Assembly (NCBI GenBank): GCA_963792415.1
Contig: CAWBVY010000006.1
Coordinates: forward strand, 192,001 to 256,000
DNA from: Candidatus Deferrimicrobiaceae bacterium
GTDB lineage: Bacteria; Desulfobacterota; Deferrimicrobia; Deferrimicrobiales; Deferrimicrobiaceae
Reading direction: 5' to 3'
Length of the DNA: 64,000 nt
Part shown: in pieces, positions 37,639 to 49,252 of the stretch
How positions within the stretch are numbered: the first letter of the stretch is position 1
How the letters are laid out: each line of letters begins with the position of its first letter
Position numbers and translations under genes: made by a program
Notes under the pieces: model-generated
What the model saw: the letters and a program-made list of their open reading frames with translations, nothing else
Told to the model about the DNA's origin: nothing
Database searches by the model: none

Positions 37639-39849
37639 TTATCCTCCCAATGCGTTCATCAGCTCGTCCGCGGCTTCACGGAGCATCGCCTCGTACCGCG
37701 GCACGTCCGGCGTCTCGGTCCCGTCGAGGAACCCCATCGCGCGGCCCCCGCGGTCCGCCAGAAGGTAGCGGATCTTCGACCCGGGCCGCAGGTCCACGCC
37801 GCGGCCGCACAGCTCCCGGGTCACCGCGGCGGCGGCCGTGTTGGCGACGTACCGCCCGGGGGCCTTCGACAGGCGCCTCGCGATCGCCAATCCCTCGATC
37901 GGGACCCTCCCGCAGCGAAGTTCGGAAACGGCGGATTCCACGCGCTCGCGCAGCTCCGGCAACATCGCCCGCAGCTCCGAAAGGTCGCCGGCCTCCGCCA
38001 TCCGCCCGAGGAGTTCCCGCTGGAGCGCGGCGACCAGCGGCGGGGTGTCGGAGCGGCGCAGGGCGATCCCGCGGGCCTTGATCTCCCCGCTCGTGAACGC
38101 CCCCGCGAACCGGTTGGGAACGGCCACCGACCGGTTCCGCTTCGACGGGAGGAAGGCGAGCCACTTGTAGACCCCTTCGAGCGCGATCGGCATCCCCGTC
38201 TCCGCGGTGATCCGTTCCGAGAGCCGGCGGTACTCCTCCGCCGCCGCGCCCCCCTTTTTCACCCAGATCGCGTCCGTCAGCCCGTGGAGAAAGACGAACC
38301 CTTCCCGCTCGGCGACCTCCTTCGCGGACAGGAGCTTCTCCCTGCCCCAGGCGGTGACCGCCTCGTGCGCCTCGATCCGACCGAACCGCGCGTTCCGGTA
38401 GCCGAGGAAGCCGAAGGAGACGACGAGGAGCCATTTGAGCGCCGTCTGCCGCTTCCGGAAGAGTTCGCGCGCCTCGGGCTCCGTCGCGGCCTTCTGCCGC
38501 TCCTTCAGGAGCCGGCGCTTGAGGAGGATCGGGGCGATCGTATCGGGGACGAGCCCCCTGCGGCGGAGGCAGGTGTGGGCGCCGATCTCGGGGACGGGGA
38601 GGCCGGGGCGGCAGCAGGCGCAGTTGACCGTCTCGGGGGAGATGTTGTACCGGTCCATGAGCGACGGATACATCGACGCGAAGTCGAGCTCCCCCACGTT
38701 CTCGTGCGCCCCTGGGCGCGGAAGATACGTGAGCCCGCCCTTGTCGGTGACGACGAGATCGACGCCGCTCTTGAACGTCTCCGGCTCCCGCTTCTTGTAC
38801 GGAACGAGGATCCCCCCCTTGAGGGCGGTCGCCACCTGCATCGCGGAGATGGCGGTTCCCGGCGACGTCCGGGCGACGCGCTGCAGCGGGATGCCGGAGA
38901 GACGGGAGAGTTCGACGAGCCCCGGCAGCCCGGTCTCCCCGAAAAGGAACGAGTTGCGGGCGTCCACGTGCCACCGGCCGGCGAGGGTGTGCGGCGCCGC
39001 GCGGAAGATCACCCTGCCGTACGAAACGAACGACCGTTCCCGGCCGCCCCGAACGCGGCCCGGGACGGAGGACCCGATCCCCGTGCCGCGGTTCCGCGGA
39101 GCGCCGAAAACCTCGTCGGGGGTTCGGGGAGCCCGCCCCAGGGGAAGCGGCGAGCGAAGCCGGCCGGCCAGCGCGAGAAGCCGCGGCAGCAGCCAGTCGT
39201 CGCCGTACTCGGTGACGAGCAGGTCGGGGTCGGCACGCTCGACGAGCCGCGCCAGGTCCCGAAGGAAGTCGGCCCCGTTCTCCCAAAGGAGACTTTGCGT
39301 CACGCCGTCGGCGATGAACTCGAGCGGGCGGACGCGCCGATGCGCCGGGTGCCCCTTCCCTTCCATTCTGAGGAGCGCGATCGAAAAGGAGGGATGCGGC
39401 GCGTCCACGTCCCACGGCGAATCGAGAACGCGGGCGGAGCGGATCGTCCCGTCGCCGTCGCAATCGACCGCGGCGCGCGACAGGGGGTACAGCCCCGTCG
39501 CGAAGGAGAACTGCTGCTCCGGCGCGATGTCGGCGTTGCACAGCGCGTCCGGGCCGAACGCCTTTTCCGCCTTGCGGACCGAAGGTCCGAGAAGGGCCGG
39601 TCCCGGCACGGTGAACGACCAGGCCGGGATCGTCCTGCCCGAGAGGAAATCGATCCCCTCCCCCCGAGCGAGGCCGCACTTCCACCGCACGGCGGCGGCG
39701 CGGAGCGCGGGCTCTTTCAGGCGGTTCCCCGCGAGGACGAACGAGGGACGAAACGGGGCGAAGAGCGCGATCGTCTCCCCGGTAGCGGCGCGGAACCAGA
39801 CCGTCATCCCGCCCGGTTCCCCCGCGATGTCGAACACCCACCCGTTCAT
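37639..39849 (-). CDS. Family B DNA polymerase, PolB2-like (degenerate exonuclease)
   Basis: Motif A LDFASMYPS, NISPET, motif B KWLLVVSFGFLG, motif C HGLTDAIWV, KARGIALRRSD; ATGA overlap with the upstream small gene. Confidence 0.9.
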   Translation of the reverse strand: MNGWVFDIAGEPGGMTVWFRAATGETIALFAPFRPSFVLAGNRLKEPALRAAAVRWKCGLARGEGIDFLSGRTIPAWSFTVPGPALLGPSVRKAEKAFGPDALCNADIAPEQQFSFATGLYPLSRAAVDCDGDGTIRSARVLDSPWDVDAPHPSFSIALLRMEGKGHPAHRRVRPLEFIADGVTQSLLWENGADFLRDLARLVERADPDLLVTEYGDDWLLPRLLALAGRLRSPLPLGRAPRTPDEVFGAPRNRGTGIGSSVPGRVRGGRERSFVSYGRVIFRAAPHTLAGRWHVDARNSFLFGETGLPGLVELSRLSGIPLQRVARTSPGTAISAMQVATALKGGILVPYKKREPETFKSGVDLVVTDKGGLTYLPRPGAHENVGELDFASMYPSLMDRYNISPETVNCACCRPGLPVPEIGAHTCLRRRGLVPDTIAPILLKRRLLKERQKAATEPEARELFRKRQTALKWLLVVSFGFLGYRNARFGRIEAHEAVTAWGREKLLSAKEVAEREGFVFLHGLTDAIWVKKGGAAAEEYRRLSERITAETGMPIALEGVYKWLAFLPSKRNRSVAVPNRFAGAFTSGEIKARGIALRRSDTPPLVAALQRELLGRMAEAGDLSELRAMLPELRERVESAVSELRCGRVPIEGLAIARRLSKAPGRYVANTAAAAVTRELCGRGVDLRPGSKIRYLLADRGGRAMGFLDGTETPDVPRYEAMLREAADELMNALGG

Positions 39850-40139
39850 CTCCCGTCGGGGCATTGCCGATGCATCGAAGCCAGCCGCCGTTCGAGCTCC
39901 TCGAGCCGCCTCGACAGCTCGCGCGCGGAGCGGCGCTCCTCGATGAGGATGCTCATCAGGATCGCGTCGAAGGGAACGACCCTCCCCGCGCAGGTGCACG
40001 CCGCGGTGTGGTAGCGGGCCGCCGCGAACAGCGCGTCGAACAGCTCGCGATCCTCCCGGCGCAAGGCGCGTCGAAAACCCCGCCACGACTCCTCCTCGCG
40101 GTAGAGCTCCTGGGTGAAGGGGAGGACGGTTCGCCCCAC
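39846..40139 (-). CDS. Small helical PolB2-associated protein (arCOG07300/PPB2-like), 97 aa
   Basis: MGRTVLPF...FRRALRREDRELFDALF...PFDAILMSILIE; GGAGG RBS before GTG; translationally coupled to the polymerase. Confidence 0.8.
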   Translation of the reverse strand: MGRTVLPFTQELYREEESWRGFRRALRREDRELFDALFAAARYHTAACTCAGRVVPFDAILMSILIEERRSARELSRRLEELERRLASMHRQCPDGR

Positions 40140-40141
40140 CG

Positions 40142-40761
40142 TCAGGATCCTCCCCGCAGTTCCCACGTCGGACCGCCCTCGGCCCGTCGCAGGAGAAGGA
40201 CGGGATCGGCCGTTCGGACGAGATAACGGAAGAACCCCGCCCGGTCGGCGGGGACGGGACCCACCGCGCAACGGCCGGCCGAAGCCGGCGGCTCCCCTTT
40301 CCCGACGAGGACGACCCGCGTTCCGGCGCGGGCGAGCCTGCGCAGCGCGGAGAGACAGTTCCGGAAGACACGGCACGCCTCCGCGTACGGCACGTCGGCG
40401 TCGGCGAACGTTTCGGGAAGACCGAGGACGAGGGCAAGCCGGGCGTCGAACCGGGAAAGCGCCCGGGGCAGCCGGCGGGACAGGAGCGCTTCCATCTGGT
40501 GGCAGGTGAACGCCCGGGAGACGCGGATGCGGGACAGGGCCTCCCTGCCGTCCCCCCCCTCGCCCGGGCCGCTTTGGAGATCTCGTACGGGTCGAACCGG
40601 TTCGCGCCGTCGACGGCCACGACCGCCTCGGCGCGAAGAAGCGGCACGGCGAGCGCCCGGAGCGCGAGCCCGCACGCGCCGTCCCCGAAGATCCCGGCCA
40701 TCTTCCCCGGGGCCGGGGAAAGGCAGAGGGAGGAGGCGCGCTCCATGTCGAGCAAGGGCAC
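40142..40761 (-). pseudogene. Catalytically degenerate RadA/RecA-fold (ImuA-like) protein with a frameshift in a G8 tract
   Basis: VDGANRFDPYEI in one frame and LSRIRVSRAFTCHQM in another; adding one G at 40552-40559 joins them into 206 aa; no GKT Walker A. Confidence 0.75.
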
Positions 40762-40770
40762 GGGAGGCCC

Positions 40771-41382
40771 CTACAATTTCCGGTAGACGCCGACGACTTT
40801 TCCGGCGATGCGGAACGACGGGGCGCCGGCGGGGACGACGATGGCCGGATAGGCCGGGTTGGCGGCCTCGAGCCGGACCTTCCCCTTCCATCGGCGGAAC
40901 CGCTTGACGGTGGCATCGCCGTCGATCACGGCGACGACGATCTCCCCTTCCTCCGCGCGGGGCTGCGACCGGACAACGACGTGGTCCCCGTCGCAGATGT
41001 GGACCCCCGTCATGCTGTCCCCCTTGACCCGAAGGGAGAAGACCTCGCCCTCCCCCACCAGGCCGGGATCGAGGAGAAGTTCCCCCTCGACCTCCTCGAT
41101 CGCCTCGCGCGGCCCCCCGGCGGGAACCCGGCCCAGGACCGGGACGCGCACGGCGGACCGGGGGTGGCTCTCCCCCACGAACTCGATCCGGCGCGGATGG
41201 TGGCGCTTGCGCCGGATGTACCCCTTGCGCTCCAGAAGCTCCAGGTAGTAGAAGCCGTTCTTCACGGCGATCCCGAAACGGCTCGCGATCTCCGCGGCCG
41301 TCGGGGCGAACCGGTGGCGCTCCGCGAACTCCCGGAGGAAGTCGAGGACCCGCCGCTGCGTCGGTGTCAGGGGGGCGACCAT
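40771..41382 (-). CDS. lexA: SOS transcriptional repressor LexA
   Basis: LTPTQRRVLDFL...PTAAEIA wHTH, Ala-Gly site VPAGGP, catalytic Ser in GDSM, catalytic Lys in TVKRF. Confidence 0.94.
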   Translation of the reverse strand: MVAPLTPTQRRVLDFLREFAERHRFAPTAAEIASRFGIAVKNGFYYLELLERKGYIRRKRHHPRRIEFVGESHPRSAVRVPVLGRVPAGGPREAIEEVEGELLLDPGLVGEGEVFSLRVKGDSMTGVHICDGDHVVVRSQPRAEEGEIVVAVIDGDATVKRFRRWKGKVRLEAANPAYPAIVVPAGAPSFRIAGKVVGVYRKL

Positions 41383-43990: not shown

Positions 43991-45295
43991 TTACATCATT
44001 TCCCTTATTTTTTTAAGAACAGCGATGTTCTGCGTGTGACCCGTCATCCGGGCGACCACCCTCGCCTGCAAACGCCGGCCGAGAAGGTAGAAATCCCCGA
44101 TCATGTCCATGATCTTGTGGCGCACCGGCTCATCCGGGAATCGAAGGGCGTCGTTGATCGGTCCATCCTCCCCGAAGAGGACGAAGTTGTCGAAGCGCCC
44201 GCCGAGAGCCAACCCCTGCCGCTGCAATTGCCCGATGTCCCGCGCGAACCCGAAGGTTCGGGCGGGGGCGATCTCCTTCCGATAGGTCGCGGGGTCGTCG
44301 AGACGGAAGACGTATCGCTGCTTGCCGACCGGGGCCGGATATTCGAGCGTGTAGTCGATCTCGAACGCGTCGCACGGCTCGAGGAGGATCGATGCCTTGC
44401 CGGCATCGATCCGGATCGGCTCCTTCACCTGGATCCCGTGCCAGTCCCCGATCTGGTTCTCGAAGCCCACTTCCTCGAACAGGGAACAGAACTCCACGGA
44501 CGAACCGTCCAGCACGGGGACCTCGCCGTTGCACTTGATGAGGAGATTGCTCACCCCGTAGGCGTTGAGCGCGGACATGACGTGCTCGATGGTCGCGACA
44601 TGGGTGGTTCCGAGGCGGATCGTCGTGGCCCACCCGGTCGATTCGACGAAATCGAGGTGCGCGGGAACCGCCCGATTGTCGGAGACCCCGACGAAGTGGA
44701 TCCCCGAATCGGGACCCAGCGGCTCGAAGATCAGGCCGCTCTTCCTCCCGGAATGAAGCCCCTGTCCATACAGGACCGCGCTGCGGGCGAGCGTCCGCTG
44801 GGGAATGAGGGCCCCGGGCATCGCCTGGCTCCTGAACACCAGCGGCTGCAGTTCCGGCATCCCCTCCCCGGACCGGAGATCGACCGGGCCGGCGAGGTCC
44901 CCCTCGGCGGGAGTCCGCGCGGCATCCTGCGTCCCGAGCGCCCGACGAATCGCGTTCAGCACGACCTCGAGCTCGAGCGGTTTTTCGATGAAATCCGACG
45001 CGCCGACCTTCGTCGCCTTTATGGCGGTAGATATCGTCGCGTGCCCGCTTATCATGATCACGGGCGTATCGGGCTGCATGGCCTTCATGCGCCGGAGCGT
45101 TTCGATCCCGTCCATTCCCGGCATCCAGATGTCGAGAATCACCAGCGAGGGACGCAGCGATTCAAGCTTGGAGAGCGCATCGGCGCCATCGCTGGCGAGC
45201 GCGCAGGAATACCCCTCGTCGCTCAGAACACCCTCGAGCGATTTCCTGATGCTCGTCTCGTCATCGACGATCAGGATCGGTCCCGGTTGCGCCAT
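43991..45295 (-). CDS. lpxC: Response-regulator receiver domain fused to UDP-3-O-acyl-GlcNAc deacetylase
   Basis: REC motifs ILIVDDE, LDIWMPGMDG, ISGH, FIEKP; LpxC motifs QRTL...GQGLHSG, TIEHVMSAL, PVLDGS, IAPARTFG, RHKIMDMIGD, GH; own GGGAGG RBS; in frame with thiE. Confidence 0.88.
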   Translation of the reverse strand: MAQPGPILIVDDETSIRKSLEGVLSDEGYSCALASDGADALSKLESLRPSLVILDIWMPGMDGIETLRRMKAMQPDTPVIMISGHATISTAIKATKVGASDFIEKPLELEVVLNAIRRALGTQDAARTPAEGDLAGPVDLRSGEGMPELQPLVFRSQAMPGALIPQRTLARSAVLYGQGLHSGRKSGLIFEPLGPDSGIHFVGVSDNRAVPAHLDFVESTGWATTIRLGTTHVATIEHVMSALNAYGVSNLLIKCNGEVPVLDGSSVEFCSLFEEVGFENQIGDWHGIQVKEPIRIDAGKASILLEPCDAFEIDYTLEYPAPVGKQRYVFRLDDPATYRKEIAPARTFGFARDIGQLQRQGLALGGRFDNFVLFGEDGPINDALRFPDEPVRHKIMDMIGDFYLLGRRLQARVVARMTGHTQNIAVLKKIREMM

Positions 45296-45961
45296 GGACG
45301 GTTCCTCCCTTTCCTTTCCAGTTTCTTCCAGTATCCTCTTCAACCGCCGGGTCTCCTGCGAAATATCGTCCGCGGACACGATCGCGGAGATCACGGCCGC
45401 CCCATCCGCCCCCGCTTCCCGCACCTTCCGGGCATTTTCGGCGTTGATCCCCCCGATGGCGACGATCGGGAGACGGCAATGACGGCGGATCCGCACGATG
45501 CAGTCGAGGCCCATGGGCTCGCCGGTGTCCGGCTTCGTCCCCCGCGCCTCGAACACCGGGCCGACCCCAAGGTAATCCGCTCCATCCTTCTCCGCCCGGA
45601 GGGCCTCCTCCACCGTTACCGCCGAAACCCCCAGGATCTTGCCCGGGGCCAGGATCCTCCGCACCACCGACGCCGGCAGGTCGGACTGGCCGACATGGAC
45701 CCCGTCCGCGTCGACCGCCAACGCGATGTCGAGGCGATCGTTCACGATGAAGGGGACCTTCGCCTCGCGTGTGAGGTTCCGCAGCTGCAGCGCCTCCCGG
45801 TACAGCAGGCCGCTTCCGGCTTCCTTGTCCCGCAGCTGAAGCACGTCGGCCCCGCCCGCGATGGCCGCTTCCGCGACCTCGAGATGGGACCGGCCCCGGC
45901 TCAACTTCCGGTCCGTGAGGACGTGGAGCCTCCAAAGGCCCGGGGAAACGGGATCGGTCAT
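45296..45961 (-). CDS. thiE: Thiamine-phosphate synthase (no stop codon; reads into REC-LpxC)
   Basis: LQLRDK, FIVNDRLDIALAVDADGVHVGQSD, DYLGVGPVF, TKPD, VAIGGIN. Confidence 0.9.
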
Positions 45962-45967
45962 CGCCGG

Positions 45968-47029
45968 TCAGCCGCCCTGCGACGCCGCTTTCCCGAAGGC
46001 GGCCCAGAAGGGATCCACCTTGGGATGGATCAGCTCATGGGACGTTCCGCCTTCAAAGTAGCGCATACCGTGTCCTGCCTCCACGATCTCCCCCACCATG
46101 CTCGCCGGGATCCCCTTGTCGCCCAGCCGCCGGAGCACTTCCTTCGCCTTTTGCGGCCTGCAGGTGAGGATCAGCGTCCCCTCGCTGATCGAGGAGTACG
46201 GATCGATGCCGAACAGGTCGCACACGTTCCGAACCGCGTCCTGCACGATGATCTTCTCCTTGTCGATGGTCATGCCGACGCCCGACGCCCGGGCAACCTC
46301 GAACAGACCTCCCCACACCCCGCACTCGGTCGCGTCGTGCATGGTGGTCACCCCGTCCTCCCTCACCCCGGCCTCGATCGCGGTGAAGGCGTCCTCCACG
46401 ATGGACATCTGCCAGAAGACCTCCTCGGCTTCCCGTGCCGCCTTCTCCCCGTACCGCTTCACCATGCGGTCGGGAAAGGTGACGGCGAAGAGTCCGGCCG
46501 CCTCGATGGCCGCCCCCTTGGTGAGGACGACGACATCCCCCAGCCGCGCCATGTCCGGGGTCACGTACCGGTCCTTCGGCCCGATGCCGATCACGGTGGC
46601 CCCGCCGATCATGGGGTATTCGCACCCTTCGTAGCGGCCCGTGTGCCCGGAGATGACGGCCATCCCGATCTTGTCGCACTCCCTGTGCATCACTCCCCAG
46701 AGCGCCTCGAACTCCTCCCGGGTGATGGACAAGGGGAGATTCAGGTCCACGGTGATGTAGTTCGGCCGGATACCCGACGTGACCGCATCGGAAGCGAGGA
46801 TGTGGATCGCGAACCAGCCGGAACGCTCCCACCCGTAGGGGGGCACGACGAAGATGGGATCGGTCGTCGTCACCATCACCTGGCCGTGCCCGAGATCGAC
46901 GACCCCGACATCCACGCCATGACGCGGACCCATCAGGATTTCCGGGCGCTTCCGCCCCAGTTGCGGAAGGATGATCTCGTCGAATATCTCCGAAGACACC
47001 TTCCCGATCGTCGGCAACTCCGTTCTCAT
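45968..47029 (-). CDS. AIR synthase-related (PurM/HypE/ThiL superfamily) protein
   Basis: GPRHGVDVGVV, TTDPI, SDAVTSG, SGHTG, MHDATECGVWGGL, ISEGTLI. Confidence 0.85.
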   Translation of the reverse strand: MRTELPTIGKVSSEIFDEIILPQLGRKRPEILMGPRHGVDVGVVDLGHGQVMVTTTDPIFVVPPYGWERSGWFAIHILASDAVTSGIRPNYITVDLNLPLSITREEFEALWGVMHRECDKIGMAVISGHTGRYEGCEYPMIGGATVIGIGPKDRYVTPDMARLGDVVVLTKGAAIEAAGLFAVTFPDRMVKRYGEKAAREAEEVFWQMSIVEDAFTAIEAGVREDGVTTMHDATECGVWGGLFEVARASGVGMTIDKEKIIVQDAVRNVCDLFGIDPYSSISEGTLILTCRPQKAKEVLRRLGDKGIPASMVGEIVEAGHGMRYFEGGTSHELIHPKVDPFWAAFGKAASQGG

Positions 47030-47139: not shown

Positions 47140-47637
47140 CTACAGGACCACGGGCGTGTCCGGCAATTCGTTCCGGTCGTCGCCGATCGGGGGGAAATGC
47201 TCCGCAAGATGGCGCGTCACTTCCTGGATGCCGCGGACCACGCCCCCTTCATAGTCCGCCTGCCGGAAAGCGGCTTCCATGATTCGACAGATCCCCTCCC
47301 ATTCCCGCTCGCCCACCTTCCCATGAATCCCCCGGTCCGCGACGATCTCCACGTCCCGGTCCGCGAGCAGCAGGTAGATCAGCACGCCGTTGTTCTGTTC
47401 GGTATCCCATATCCGCAACTGCGAAAAGACGTCGATCGCGCGTTCCCGGGCGGATTGGCCCCGCAGGAGCGGCTCGATGTGCAGCGCGGCTTCCACCGCG
47501 AACCGTATTTCGCCGCGGTGCAGGGCCTCGCTCGCCTTGATCGCCCTGTCGATCGCGACCAACGTGTCGCCCGGGAAGGAGCGGTTGACCATCCATCGGG
47601 TCGCCATGAGATGCCTTGCGATGCGTCCAACGCTCAT
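47140..47637 (-). CDS. TPM domain protein
   Basis: HRGEIRFAVE, WDTEQNNGVLIYLLLADRDVEIVADRG, NELPD. Confidence 0.88.
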   Translation of the reverse strand: MSVGRIARHLMATRWMVNRSFPGDTLVAIDRAIKASEALHRGEIRFAVEAALHIEPLLRGQSARERAIDVFSQLRIWDTEQNNGVLIYLLLADRDVEIVADRGIHGKVGEREWEGICRIMEAAFRQADYEGGVVRGIQEVTRHLAEHFPPIGDDRNELPDTPVVL

Positions 47638-47639
47638 CG

Positions 47640-48527
47640 TCACCACCGTCCCGACGCGCCGCCGCCGCCGAACCCGCCGCCGCCGCCGCTGAAACCGCCT
47701 CCGCCGAATCCCCCGCCTCCGAAGCCGCCGCCGCCAAATCCGCCTCCGAAGCCGCCGCCCAGCCCACGCCCTCCCATGCCGCGCAGCAGCGTGAACAGGA
47801 ATGCGATCAGACCTACGATCAGCGCCACGGAGATCGCGCCGGCCAGCATCCAGGTGATCACGGAGACGGCCCCGCCGGTGACCAACGCGCCGGGAAATCT
47901 GCCCAGCACGGTGTGCAGCACCCCGCCCACCACGAGCGCAAGGATCATCATGACGGGCAGGATCGACATGATCCCACGGGCCTCGCCGGGGCGCCGTGGG
48001 GACGGTTCCGGCAACGGCTCGCCGTCGATCACGCGGAGGATACGGTCGACCCCGGCAGAGATCCCTCCGTGGAAATCCCCCTGCCGGAACCGGGGCACGA
48101 TGATCTCGCTGATGATCCGCTTGCAGGCGGCGTCGGTGAGCGCCCCTTCCAGGCCGTACCCCACCTCGATCCGCAGCGTCCGGTCGTCCTTCGCGACGAC
48201 AAGAAGCGCCCCGTCGTCCACGTTCTTCCGCCCCGGCTTCCACCGCTCCGCGACGCGCAAGGCGTATTGCTCGATCGTCTCCGGGGCCGTGGATGGAACG
48301 ATGAGAACCGCGACCTGGCTCCCTTTCCTCTCCTCGAACGACCGCAAGGTCTGTTCCAGGACGGATTTCTGTTCCTCGGTGAGTGTGCCGGTCTGATCGG
48401 TAACACGCCCGGCCAGGGGTGGAACCGGGACCTGTGCCCCGGCAACGACGGCCCAGCAGAGCGCGAGCACCATCAGGGACGCCCTTGCGGTCCTCGGCGC
48501 CACTCCCTCTGCCCTTTCCCTTGCCAC
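47640..48527 (-). CDS. TPM domain protein (YgcG family) with Gly-rich tail
   Basis: GRVTDQTGTL, RIEVGYGLEGALTD, TM helices, GGGFGGGGASGRW terminus. Confidence 0.92.
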   Translation of the reverse strand: MARERAEGVAPRTARASLMVLALCWAVVAGAQVPVPPLAGRVTDQTGTLTEEQKSVLEQTLRSFEERKGSQVAVLIVPSTAPETIEQYALRVAERWKPGRKNVDDGALLVVAKDDRTLRIEVGYGLEGALTDAACKRIISEIIVPRFRQGDFHGGISAGVDRILRVIDGEPLPEPSPRRPGEARGIMSILPVMMILALVVGGVLHTVLGRFPGALVTGGAVSVITWMLAGAISVALIVGLIAFLFTLLRGMGGRGLGGGFGGGFGGGGFGGGGFGGGGFSGGGGGFGGGGASGRW

Positions 48528-48533
48528 TCCCGG

Positions 48534-49136
48534 CTACTTCGTCGGCGGAGGCGCGAAATCGACTTTGGGAGGCTTGGCGACTTCCTTCTCGTTCTCCACG
48601 GTGAAGTTCGGCTTCGTTTTATACCCGAACACCATCGCCGTCAGGTTGGAGGGGAATGACCGCACGGTCACGTTGTACTCCTGCACCGCCTTGATGTAGC
48701 GGTTCCGCGCGACCGCGATCCGGTTCTCGGTCCCTTCGAGCTGCGCCTGCAGATCGCGGAAGTTGGCGTCGGACTTCAACTGCGGATAATTCTCCGCCAC
48801 CACCAGCAGCCGCGAAAGGGCTCCCGACAGCTCTCCCTGGGCGGCCTGGAACTTCCCGAACGCCTCGGGGCTGTTGATCAGTTCCGGCGTCGCCTGGATG
48901 CTGCCCACCTTGGCGCGAGCGTTTGTGACACCCAGCAACACTTCTTTTTCCTGGGCGGCGAACCCCTTCACCGTGTTCACCAGGTTGGGGATCAGGTCCG
49001 CGCGGCGCTGGTACTGGTTCAGGACCTCGGACCAGCTCGACTTGATCAGCTCATCGTTCTGCTGGAACGTGTTGTAGCCGCAGCCCGCGAAGGTGAGTGC
49101 GAGGAACACCGTGAGGACCGCCGATGATTTCCGCAT
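48534..49136 (-). CDS. lemA: LemA family protein
   Basis: GCGYN, QYQRRADLIPNLV, ENYPQLKSD, LEGTENRIAVAR. Confidence 0.94.
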   Translation of the reverse strand: MRKSSAVLTVFLALTFAGCGYNTFQQNDELIKSSWSEVLNQYQRRADLIPNLVNTVKGFAAQEKEVLLGVTNARAKVGSIQATPELINSPEAFGKFQAAQGELSGALSRLLVVAENYPQLKSDANFRDLQAQLEGTENRIAVARNRYIKAVQEYNVTVRSFPSNLTAMVFGYKTKPNFTVENEKEVAKPPKVDFAPPPTK

Positions 49137-49252
49137 GTTTCCCCCCTTTTGAAGAGCGTGCCGGATCGACGCGTCACGATCCCGTTCGCGGTTGCGGGTT
49201 GAAGGTTGACGGAGTTCAATGTCTTGATTATGCACGAGTTCGCCGGCCGATG

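Follow-up and report, generated by a model that had tools for sequence, protein, structure and literature searches.

The gene at positions 43991 to 45295 (minus strand) of the window, i.e., the whole stretch of 64,000 nucleotides from a Candidatus Deferrimicrobiaceae bacterium that was analysed, encodes a protein of 434 amino acids in which a receiver (REC) domain is joined by a linker to LpxC, and in which the phospho-acceptor residues and the LpxC catalytic residues are both complete sets. LpxC is the control point (the committed step) of outer-membrane lipid A synthesis and is a long-standing antibiotic target. The evidence tips slightly in favour of the protein being an active LpxC with a working phospho-acceptor receiver derived from an NtrX-type regulator, the circuit having descended in the manner proposed below, and suggests that a sensor kinase may control the LpxC enzyme itself in this genome. 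The known regulation of LpxC, as far as we are aware, acts through proteolysis (FtsH/LapB/YejM, Lon), through partner proteins or on transcription. A receiver on the only LpxC of whole lineages, if it acts as proposed, would add to these a fourth kind of control, in which phosphorylation switches the enzyme directly. An earlier note, made from the window alone, had raised this possibility as a mode not known to be characterised, and indeed no description of a REC-LpxC fusion was found in the literature searched; the terms “response regulator” and “receiver” are both absent from a 2025 review, “The regulation of lipid A biosynthesis” (PMC12444477).

Domain layout of the fused protein

The coding sequence (434 codons plus stop) begins at an internal ATG, a start shared with relatives. 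The REC domain comprises amino acids 7–116 (44948..45277, minus strand) and matches Pfam Response_reg (PF00072) with 114.7 bits, the cut-off being 30.2 bits. The LpxC deacetylase domain comprises amino acids 166–430 (44006..44800, minus strand), as delimited by Pfam PF03331 (268.7 bits; cut-off 27 bits; profile positions 1–266 of 268 covered) and supported by the alignment with solved LpxC and by Foldseek; the NCBIfam lpxC model TIGR00325 is also matched (214.2, cut-off 187.25). Both Pfam matches are thus far above cut-off, and the fusion claimed in the earlier note is borne out. The linker between the domains does exist, but is longer than the roughly 35 amino acids that had been estimated: it has about 49 (amino acids 117–165; 44801..44947, minus strand), of which 23 (amino acids 123–145) are predicted to be disordered (AF2 pLDDT below 50). 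Its length and sequence differ from fusion to fusion in an alignment of 35 fusions.

All of the residues named in the earlier note are there: D11-D12, D55, S83 and K105-P106 in the receiver, where the codon of the phospho-acceptor D55 is at 45131–45133 (minus strand), and E237-H238, H393-K394, D397, D401 and H420 in the enzyme. Across the same 35 fusions, conservation of these receiver and enzyme residues is complete or reaches at least 90%; D11, D12, D55, S83 and K105 are kept in 34 of them, at identities of 32–93%, and one fusion (P0148) has Asn in place of the acceptor Asp.

The LpxC domain

According to work on the E. coli and A. aeolicus enzymes, the zinc ligands of LpxC are His, His and Asp, and the catalytic residues Glu, His and Thr. 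E237-H238, T347, H393, K394, D397, D401 and H420 of the fused protein align with the motifs TVEHLL, ARTFGF, VKHKILDAIGD and SGH of P. aeruginosa LpxC, in agreement with the earlier reading of a complete LpxC with EH, HKxxD and the catalytic His. They are invariant in the 35 fusions, except for T347, which is at least 90% conserved. In the AF2 model of the protein (pLDDT 85.9), the LpxC domain is predicted to have the two-domain beta-alpha-alpha-beta fold of the family and matches A. aeolicus LpxC (1yh8) with a Foldseek TM of 0.97 and an rmsd of 1.2 Å. Presumably, the fused protein is an active LpxC deacetylase, acting on UDP-3-O-acyl-GlcNAc. It is the sole LpxC match in the 2.84-Mb genome, read except for 72 kb which could hide a second lpxC; the search for a stand-alone copy that the earlier note had proposed thus found none in the genome read. 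Both lpxA and lpxB are in the genome.

Compared with the stand-alone LpxCs of E. coli, P. aeruginosa and A. aeolicus, the fused enzyme has the same fold and the same zinc and catalytic motifs, at 31–35% identity, but it has an N-terminal receiver and belongs to a separate LpxC clade, of which nearly all members are fused. It also differs at the C terminus. The tail of E. coli LpxC is a degron for FtsH, a role for which PMC3333781 cites its reference 22, whereas the present protein ends 14 amino acids past H420, its alignment halting at residue 275 of the 302-amino-acid P. aeruginosa LpxC chain, so that the C-terminal tail is evidently absent (about 27 residues short of P. aeruginosa LpxC). A match to the LapB model (PF18073) was found in the genome; the same model also matched 10 of 14 control genomes, Gram-positives included. 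Six positions (G187, Y246, K254, C270, E306 and L373) are conserved in fused LpxC domains only. LpxC is also naturally fused in the bifunctional LpxC-FabZ proteins (NCBIfam PRK13188), examples of which were among the matches (P0210, P0225, P0262); these, however, carry a pathway enzyme at the C terminus rather than a signalling domain at the N terminus, and their LpxC domains lie outside the fused clade.

Occurrence of the fusion

All 24 sampled relatives in the genus (Ca. Deferrimicrobium, to judge from how homologues are named) carry REC-LpxC, full length in 20 and partial, at contig ends, in four; the frame is interrupted by one in-frame TGA in G019. Among the matches listed, all homologue clusters (at least 120; lengths 427–442 amino acids) bear both PF03331 and PF00072, which answers the domain-architecture search that had been proposed, and both domains are on 61 of 150 distant representatives. 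In a listing of loci by profile search of contigs, 78 of the 80 loci listed have an unfused LpxC, the other two having a short (L037) and a long (L038) fusion. Contigs from independent public runs bridge the receiver to LpxC and the junctions. Those of an RNA library (run X15) cover parts of the gene, and one of 631 nucleotides bridges receiver, linker and LpxC; they are a relative's sequence (38 differences) and are no proof of transcription. The fusion is thus present both in independent contigs and in relatives. That an error of assembly or gene calling joined two separate genes has a vanishingly small probability: the junction with thiE does vary between strains, and nothing else speaks for such an error, whereas the relatives' continuous frames and the independent contigs, together with the two-domain homologues, refute it. 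The fusion is a widespread family that is already in public annotation, where it is unremarked.

Origin of the receiver and of the fused clade

The NtrX model NF051870 is the best match of the receiver, as the earlier note's term “NtrX-like” had implied, and is confined to the receiver part: only positions 4–126 of 452 are matched, with 128 bits against a cut-off of 600. No match was found in the 434-amino-acid protein to PF00158 (the AAA+ sigma-54 interaction domain) or to PF02954 (the C-terminal Fis-type helix-turn-helix, HTH). The receiver is closest to those of NtrX-type regulators (D. vulgaris DVU2934, Bordetella PlrR and alphaproteobacterial NtrX); unlike these, REC-LpxC has neither AAA+ nor HTH and is not adjacent to a kinase. 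With both domains missing, REC-LpxC has no means of acting on transcription. The fused receiver scores 104–129 bits when compared with the NtrX-like regulators of lpxC loci, and at most 76 bits when compared with the other receiver domains of the genome; helix-1 and EKP motifs are common to it and the NtrX-like regulators. Its close match in the structural database is PDB 5m7n, and it has a weak likeness to RssB-type receivers.

In the receiver tree, the fused receiver groups with 14 of 14 NtrX-like regulators of lpxC loci and with 0 of 37 other receivers (SH-aLRT 95). An approximately unbiased (AU) test did not reject placement beside the genome's 37 other receiver rows (p 0.62; 117 columns), but the test was poorly posed, since a lineage that branches off first within the NtrX-like group would satisfy that split as well. 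Taken by itself, the receiver tree is a weak argument, as an alignment of 117 columns cannot carry it. By the scores, tree and motifs together, the receiver evidently derives from an NtrX-type regulator that in relatives is in an operon with lpxC.

The LpxC tree (107 domains) places 41 of the 41 fusions with a detected receiver in one clade of 50 rows (SH-aLRT 97), with 56 of the 61 unfused rows outside it. Grouping the fused LpxC of the lineage with its native unfused lpxC was rejected by the AU test (delta lnL 85, p 0.00014), on a 47-row subset of the 107 with groups named after the first tree had been seen. Three architectures occur in the fused clade, REC-AAA-HTH-LpxC, REC-HTH-LpxC and REC-LpxC. 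In Pfam terms the long form is REC-Sigma54_activat-AAA_lid-HTH_8-LpxC and the middle form REC-HTH_8-LpxC. The long form is common in Nitrospinota and is found in proteins labelled Nitrospina and Nitrospinaceae; the Nitrospina group has cultured members. GAFTGA or the Walker-B Asp-Glu is kept in 0 of 16 long forms versus 14 of 14 unfused neighbour regulators; in the long forms, both the loop that contacts sigma-54 and the Walker B motif have decayed. The starting point of the fused clade is evidently an NtrX-type regulator that was joined to LpxC in its entirety.

The ancestral locus and the orphan kinase

The earlier note had remarked that no cognate kinase adjoins the gene, and none was found next to it. 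The ancestral locus is preserved in relatives. In a sister species of the same genus (G016) it reads ruvA-ruvB-lpxC-DUF4390-HK-ntrX-STK, in another genome (G033) ruvB-lpxC-DUF4390-HK-ntrX-STK, and in the present genome ruvA-ruvB-DUF4390-HK-STK, both lpxC and ntrX having gone. The kinase, which is NtrY/PlrS-like, has an orthologue in 26 of 28 genomes of the genus (71–92% identity), whereas ntrX is in one of the 28; in the present genome it is encoded by C1:29904-32192. A kinase of the same type lies directly upstream of the long fusion in G037 and L038. A consensus sigma-54 promoter is found within about 110 nucleotides upstream of the unfused lpxC in nine loci, G016 among them; in the window there are no exact matches and five with one mismatch versus 3.2 expected, none of them before thiE or the fusion.

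These loci resemble NtrYX-family systems in their module of DUF4390 and HAMP-PAS kinase, which is also in this genome, and in lpxC as the shared biological target. For the sigma-54 regulator DVU2934 of D. vulgaris, lpxC is reported as the single target (PMC3333781), and the DUF4390 protein PlrP is named as a third component of an NtrYX-family system (PMC13001219); lpxC transcript levels are reported to be affected by NtrYX. As to pairing, DVU2934 goes with the kinase DVU2931 in D. vulgaris, and PlrR with PlrS and PlrP in Bordetella.

G016 has both the fusion and the stand-alone system of lpxC, kinase and ntrX; replacement of the old circuit was therefore no simple, single step. Within one genus, G016 (both systems) may be read as the state “before” and the present genome (orphan kinase and fusion) as the state “after”. 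The orphan NtrY/PlrS-like kinase is likely to be the partner of REC-LpxC; as the two genes are unlinked here, the pairing rests on descent and retention.

Control of LpxC by phosphorylation

In the ancestral circuit, a sigma-54 activator would have turned on the neighbouring lpxC at the level of transcription, its signal coming from a histidine kinase of the membrane (NtrY/PlrS-like) and a DUF4390 protein of the periplasm (PlrP-like). The fused lineage would then have acquired the receiver on the enzyme itself, with decay and deletion of the ATPase and DNA-binding parts; in the present genome the stand-alone lpxC and ntrX would have been lost afterwards. Direct two-component control is made more plausible by the origin of the receiver in the NtrX-type regulator of an lpxC operon, by the survival of that regulator's kinase as an orphan, and by the decay or deletion of the transcription-activating parts. 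What the sequences show is the architecture and the conservation of its residues, the single copy, the descent, the synteny and the retained kinase. On this reading, the orphan kinase would pass a phosphoryl group to REC-LpxC, and phosphorylation would alter the activity or stability of LpxC.

The sign is a guess: the unphosphorylated receiver might restrain LpxC and phosphorylation free it, since a sigma-54 activator can only activate, so that the ancestral signal meant “more LpxC”. CheB, in which the receiver packs on the catalytic domain and blocks it until phosphorylation, is offered as a precedent of the same sign. More widely, CheB (REC-methylesterase), PleD and WspR (REC-GGDEF) and RpfG (REC-HD-GYP) likewise place a receiver at the N terminus and an enzyme at the C terminus, with a flexible linker in between, and by analogy the expected logic would be phosphorylation-dependent release or activation. 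However, their output is a signalling enzyme, as opposed to the biosynthetic committed-step enzyme here.

The receiver could instead be a passenger or structural module on a constitutive LpxC, one that leaves catalysis unaffected and helps the protein to fold, oligomerise or localise, or that acts as a sink for phosphate from the kinase. No computed result links the two domains (the overall pTM of 0.82 for the one-chain AF2 model is an overall score only and says nothing on receiver-enzyme packing), the linker is long, variable and predicted to be disordered, and the P0148 fusion does without the acceptor Asp. A passenger domain, however, would be expected to lose its acid pocket along with the acceptor Asp, the Ser and the Lys, much as the AAA+ motifs were lost in 16 of 16 long forms; yet 34 of 35 fusions still have them, at identities as low as 32%. 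The kinase has also outlasted its regulator, together with the DUF4390 protein, and a phosphate sink requires a second output, none being evident without ntrX. A mere passenger is thus unlikely, while still deserving some weight. Slightly less probable still is that phosphorylation sets the amount of LpxC, the receiver being a phospho-dependent switch for degradation or sequestration (e.g., by FtsH, Lon or Clp) in place of the E. coli LapB/FtsH degron. The missing C-terminal tail and the weak likeness of the receiver to RssB-type receivers fit this, as does the proteolytic control of LpxC in the best-studied species (PMC12444477); no link to an adaptor or protease was found, and such a switch would be a variant of direct phosphorylation control and no contradiction to it. 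Signalling in reverse, with the LpxC domain sensing substrate or product, tuning phosphorylation of the receiver and so returning a signal to the kinase or, where the form is long, to DNA binding, is very improbable: HTH_8 is kept in the long and middle forms, and in G016, where a free NtrX stands beside the fusion, competition for the phosphoryl group is conceivable, but LpxC is the short form's only output and its catalytic residues are invariant, as expected for the only working enzyme of the cell.

Direct control of LpxC through its receiver, if true, would act on the one LpxC that Nitrospinota, Deferrimicrobia and several candidate phyla possess. It would be a readable case of the short-circuiting of a circuit, in which the input domain of a regulator moves onto the product of its own target gene, while its ATPase and DNA-binding parts later decay and disappear. 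Taken jointly, the series of architectures, whose intermediates (REC-AAA(decayed)-HTH-LpxC, REC-HTH-LpxC and REC-LpxC) still exist in different phyla, and the states before and after within one genus give an even chance that His-Asp phosphotransfer onto LpxC is a hitherto unrecognised means, independent of proteases, of balancing outer-membrane lipid synthesis.

The upstream junction with thiE

Upstream of the fusion lies thiE (thiamine-phosphate synthase; 45314..45961, minus strand; PF02581 208.9 bits, TIGR00693 204.5 bits). In this genome the open frame runs on to 45961 and would encode a ThiE-REC-LpxC protein of 656 amino acids, because the stop codon of thiE, TAA in relatives, is replaced by GAA at 45311..45313 (minus strand). 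This open frame into thiE had been overlooked in the earlier note. The internal ATG is preceded, at a distance of 8 nucleotides, by a Shine-Dalgarno-like GGGAGG (45304..45309, minus strand); comparable G-rich boxes are present in 11 of 11 relatives. Gene calls of 434 amino acids show that relatives start at the internal ATG. A functional triple fusion as a trait of the family was considered and rejected: the thiE stop is kept in nine of the nine relatives that have thiE upstream, and its loss is confined to this strain's population. At position 45313 of the plus strand, contigs of runs X1 and X2 have C, as in the window, while a contig of run X4 has A, which restores TAA.

The gene and its junction with thiE

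On the minus strand of the window, positions 43991-45961 translate as a single open frame of 656 aa, in which Pfam places a thiamine-phosphate synthase domain (aa 13-194), a response-regulator receiver domain (REC, aa 229-338) and an LpxC domain (aa 388-652), all on that strand. In NCBIfam, lpxC and thiE both score above their curated cut-offs, and NtrX is the top receiver match, confined to the receiver part. The earlier note had placed the gene at 43991-45295; this segment does encode a 434-aa REC-LpxC, while its start proves to be an internal ATG of the longer frame, preceded by GGGAGG. The junction was compared with 11 relatives in the genus: thiE closes with its own stop codon in all nine that have thiE upstream, and in six of these the stop is in frame with REC-LpxC, 5-6 codons ahead of the ATG. 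Here the stop-loss site (45311-45313, minus strand) reads GAA, as opposed to TAA in relatives, and thiE runs in frame into REC-LpxC, giving a 656-aa ThiE-REC-LpxC. At base 45313, contigs from the public sequencing runs X1 and X2 carry the same base as the window, and the X4 contig has the one that restores TAA. Taken together with the stop kept by relatives, these contigs establish that the stop loss is a real, strain-level variant, and on comparative grounds the product of the REC-LpxC family is the 434-aa protein. The 120 homologue clusters listed span 427-442 aa, and every one of them has PF03331 and PF00072.

Distribution of the fusion

A family search of the 11-contig, 2.84-Mb genome (72 kb of it outside the search) finds one LpxC, the fusion; completeness by marker genes is 100%, and lpxA and lpxB are located elsewhere in the genome. 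Going by the names that homologues bear, the organism belongs to Candidatus Deferrimicrobium, which PMC9386147 assigns to candidate phylum MBNT15. Among 24 genomes sampled from this genus, 20 have the fusion at full length (76-95% identity; one of the 20 has an in-frame TGA), and the remaining four have a partial fusion at contig ends. Two further families of the same phylum also have it, as a 414-aa short form (genome G032) and a 726-aa form (genome G037).

The architecture that had been read from this one contig recurs widely: when 150 listed representatives of 50%-identity clusters from an exhaustive profile search were re-scanned for receiver and LpxC, 61 had both. Their spacers define short (~20-70 aa), middle (~95-115 aa) and long (~260-340 aa) forms, the middle being REC-HTH_8-LpxC and the long REC-Sigma54_activat-AAA_lid-(HTH_8)-LpxC in Pfam. 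With a long-form query, every cluster among the 120 listed has PF03331, PF00158 and PF00072; those named come from Nitrospinae/Nitrospinota, Nitrospina, Ca. Nitromaritima, Ca. Schekmanbacteria, Ca. Tectomicrobia and Thermodesulfobacteriota, and are annotated as LpxC or 'response regulator NtrX'. An AIR-synthase-related gene (AIRS/AIRS_C; 45968-47029, minus strand) neighbours the fusion here, upstream of thiE, and in an unrelated MAG such a gene is the immediate downstream neighbour of a long fusion (locus L038, 4874-5926, plus strand).

Integrity of the two domains

Across 35 aligned short fusions, which share 32-93% identity with the one described here, the phospho-acceptor set reported in the earlier note is intact: D12, S83, K105 and P106 are invariant and D11 and D55 are at least 90% conserved. 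In the 454-aa short-form representative P0148, Asn replaces the acceptor Asp, the remainder of its receiver being conserved. The LpxC catalytic set likewise holds, with E237, H238, F348, H393, K394, D397, D401 and H420 invariant and T347 nearly so; in the alignment to P. aeruginosa LpxC these residues fall on its catalytic motifs, and we take their catalytic roles to be those of the LpxC literature. The AlphaFold model of REC-LpxC has a mean pLDDT of 85.9 and a pTM of 0.82, with aa 123-145 disordered, and the superposition of its LpxC part with A. aeolicus LpxC gives a TM of 0.97 and an rmsd of 1.2 A; structure comparison found no solved chain spanning both REC and LpxC. REC-LpxC stops 14 residues past its catalytic His and therefore, unlike the enterobacterial enzyme, has no C-terminal tail. 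From alignment and model, both domains look functional.

Descent of the fusion

In a tree of LpxC domains (107 rows, quick tree search), one 50-row clade (SH-aLRT 97) unites the fusions, 23 of them short, 2 middle and 16 long, together with five N-terminally cut long forms and four short proteins in which no receiver was detected, probably fragments. Inside this clade the short and long forms intermingle, and 56 unfused LpxCs fall outside it. In a 47-row subset, with groups named post hoc once the first tree was known, an AU test rejected joining the fused LpxC of this lineage to the unfused lpxC that is native to its class and genus (delta lnL 85, p 0.00014).

Against the NtrX-like regulators (sigma-54 activators) that adjoin NtrY-like kinases in relatives, the fused receiver reaches 104-129 bits; with the other receivers of its own genome it never exceeds 76 bits. 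One receiver-tree clade (SH-aLRT 95) holds 19 of 22 short, all 16 long and both middle fusions with all 14 NtrX-like regulators, and takes in none of the 37 other receivers of the genome. The first helix, which carries specificity and reads DDExxIxxSLxGxLxDEGY, is common to fusions and NtrX-like regulators, as is an EKP motif that occurs in only two of those 37. An AU test of a split placing the receiver of this lineage with the genome's other receivers, loosely posed and on 117 columns only, did not reject it (p 0.62). By sequence comparison, the fused receiver is shown to be intact and of NtrX descent.

Both G[AS]FTGA and the Walker-B Asp-Glu are present in 14/14 unfused neighbour regulators, and neither occurs in any of 16 long fusions, 14 of which retain the Walker-A lysine; AAA+, then HTH segments are missing from different branches of the fused clade. 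Judging from these motifs, selection on sigma-54-activating function has evidently gone after fusion.

The ancestral locus and the orphan kinase

In genome G033, the gene order is ruvB, lpxC, DUF4390, an NtrY-like kinase (HAMP-PAS-HisKA-HATPase), an NtrX-like sigma-54 regulator and a Ser/Thr kinase with PEGA. The sister species G016 (locus L017, G016:C2:1-10000) has ruvA, ruvB, unfused lpxC, DUF4390, kinase, sigma-54 regulator and Ser/Thr kinase, and additionally the REC-LpxC fusion, which means that this one species contains both systems. The same neighbourhood of the present genome reads ruvA, ruvB, DUF4390, kinase and Ser/Thr kinase, lpxC and the regulator both being absent, and the histidine-kinase gene overlaps the Ser/Thr kinase gene by 4 nt. 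This orphan kinase is 85% identical to that of G016; its scores are 394-1440 bits with the locus kinases and at most 108 bits with other kinases of its genome. It is found in 26 of 28 genus genomes (19/19 high-quality ones; 71-92% identity); a regulator orthologue (E <=1e-130) is found in 1/28. In G037 and L038 the immediate upstream neighbour of a long fusion is an NtrY-like kinase, and in the cultured Desulfonema magnum (L048) lpxC is followed by DUF4390 and kinase. The PEGA-domain Ser/Thr kinase directly downstream of the DUF4390-kinase(-regulator) locus is conserved in three genomes of different families (L024 6241-7905, minus; L015 8240-10000, plus; L017 3-1709, minus), and a functional link to the locus is possible.

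The sigma-54 promoter consensus TGGCAT-N5-TTGC precedes the unfused lpxC of G016. The exact consensus (TGGCAY-N5-TTGC) has 12 matches in the 116 loci examined, of which nine share the strand of an unfused lpxC and precede it by no more than ~110 nt (L040, L058, L069, L073, L084, L085, L090, L027 and L017; hosts from Nitrospirota, Acidobacteriota, Rokuibacteriota and genomes G038 and G016), where by our own arithmetic chance would give far below one match. This suggests that sigma-54-dependent lpxC transcription is widespread. In the published record, lpxC is the single mapped target of the D. vulgaris sigma-54 regulator DVU2934 and in S. fumaroxidans is the gene immediately before the orthologous operon (PMC3333781); in R. 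sphaeroides and C. crescentus, the amount of lpxC transcript is influenced by NtrYX (PMC12444477, PMC7240162); and PlrP (DUF4390) is proposed as a periplasmic third component that keeps the NtrY-family kinase PlrS from acting as a phosphatase (PMC13001219).

Proposed mechanism

Response regulators whose output domain is an enzyme are already known. Here, as far as conserved residues and homology show, a catalytically intact LpxC, the sole one found, is joined to an intact NtrX-descended receiver, in a genome whose conserved orphan kinase is of the family matching that receiver. The orphan kinase, with its DUF4390 partner, would phosphorylate D55 of REC-LpxC, and this would alter LpxC output. 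A close variant is that phosphorylation would control the stability of LpxC. For altered output, the favoured sign would be relief of inhibition upon phosphorylation, because a rise in lpxC expression was all that the ancestral sigma-54 activator could bring about. No published description of a receiver-LpxC fusion was found in the literature searched, which left subscription journals and supplementary files outside its scope, and a 2025 review of lipid A regulation (PMC12444477) contains neither 'response regulator' nor 'receiver'.

Other genes in the window

A LexA gene (40771-41382, minus strand) immediately precedes a long ORF (37639-40761, minus strand) that contains a family-B DNA polymerase domain, and this polymerase may be SOS-controlled. 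At 47140-49235 (minus strand), a LemA gene is followed by two TPM-domain genes, the first of which encodes a protein with a Gly-rich, GGGF-repeat C-terminal tail.
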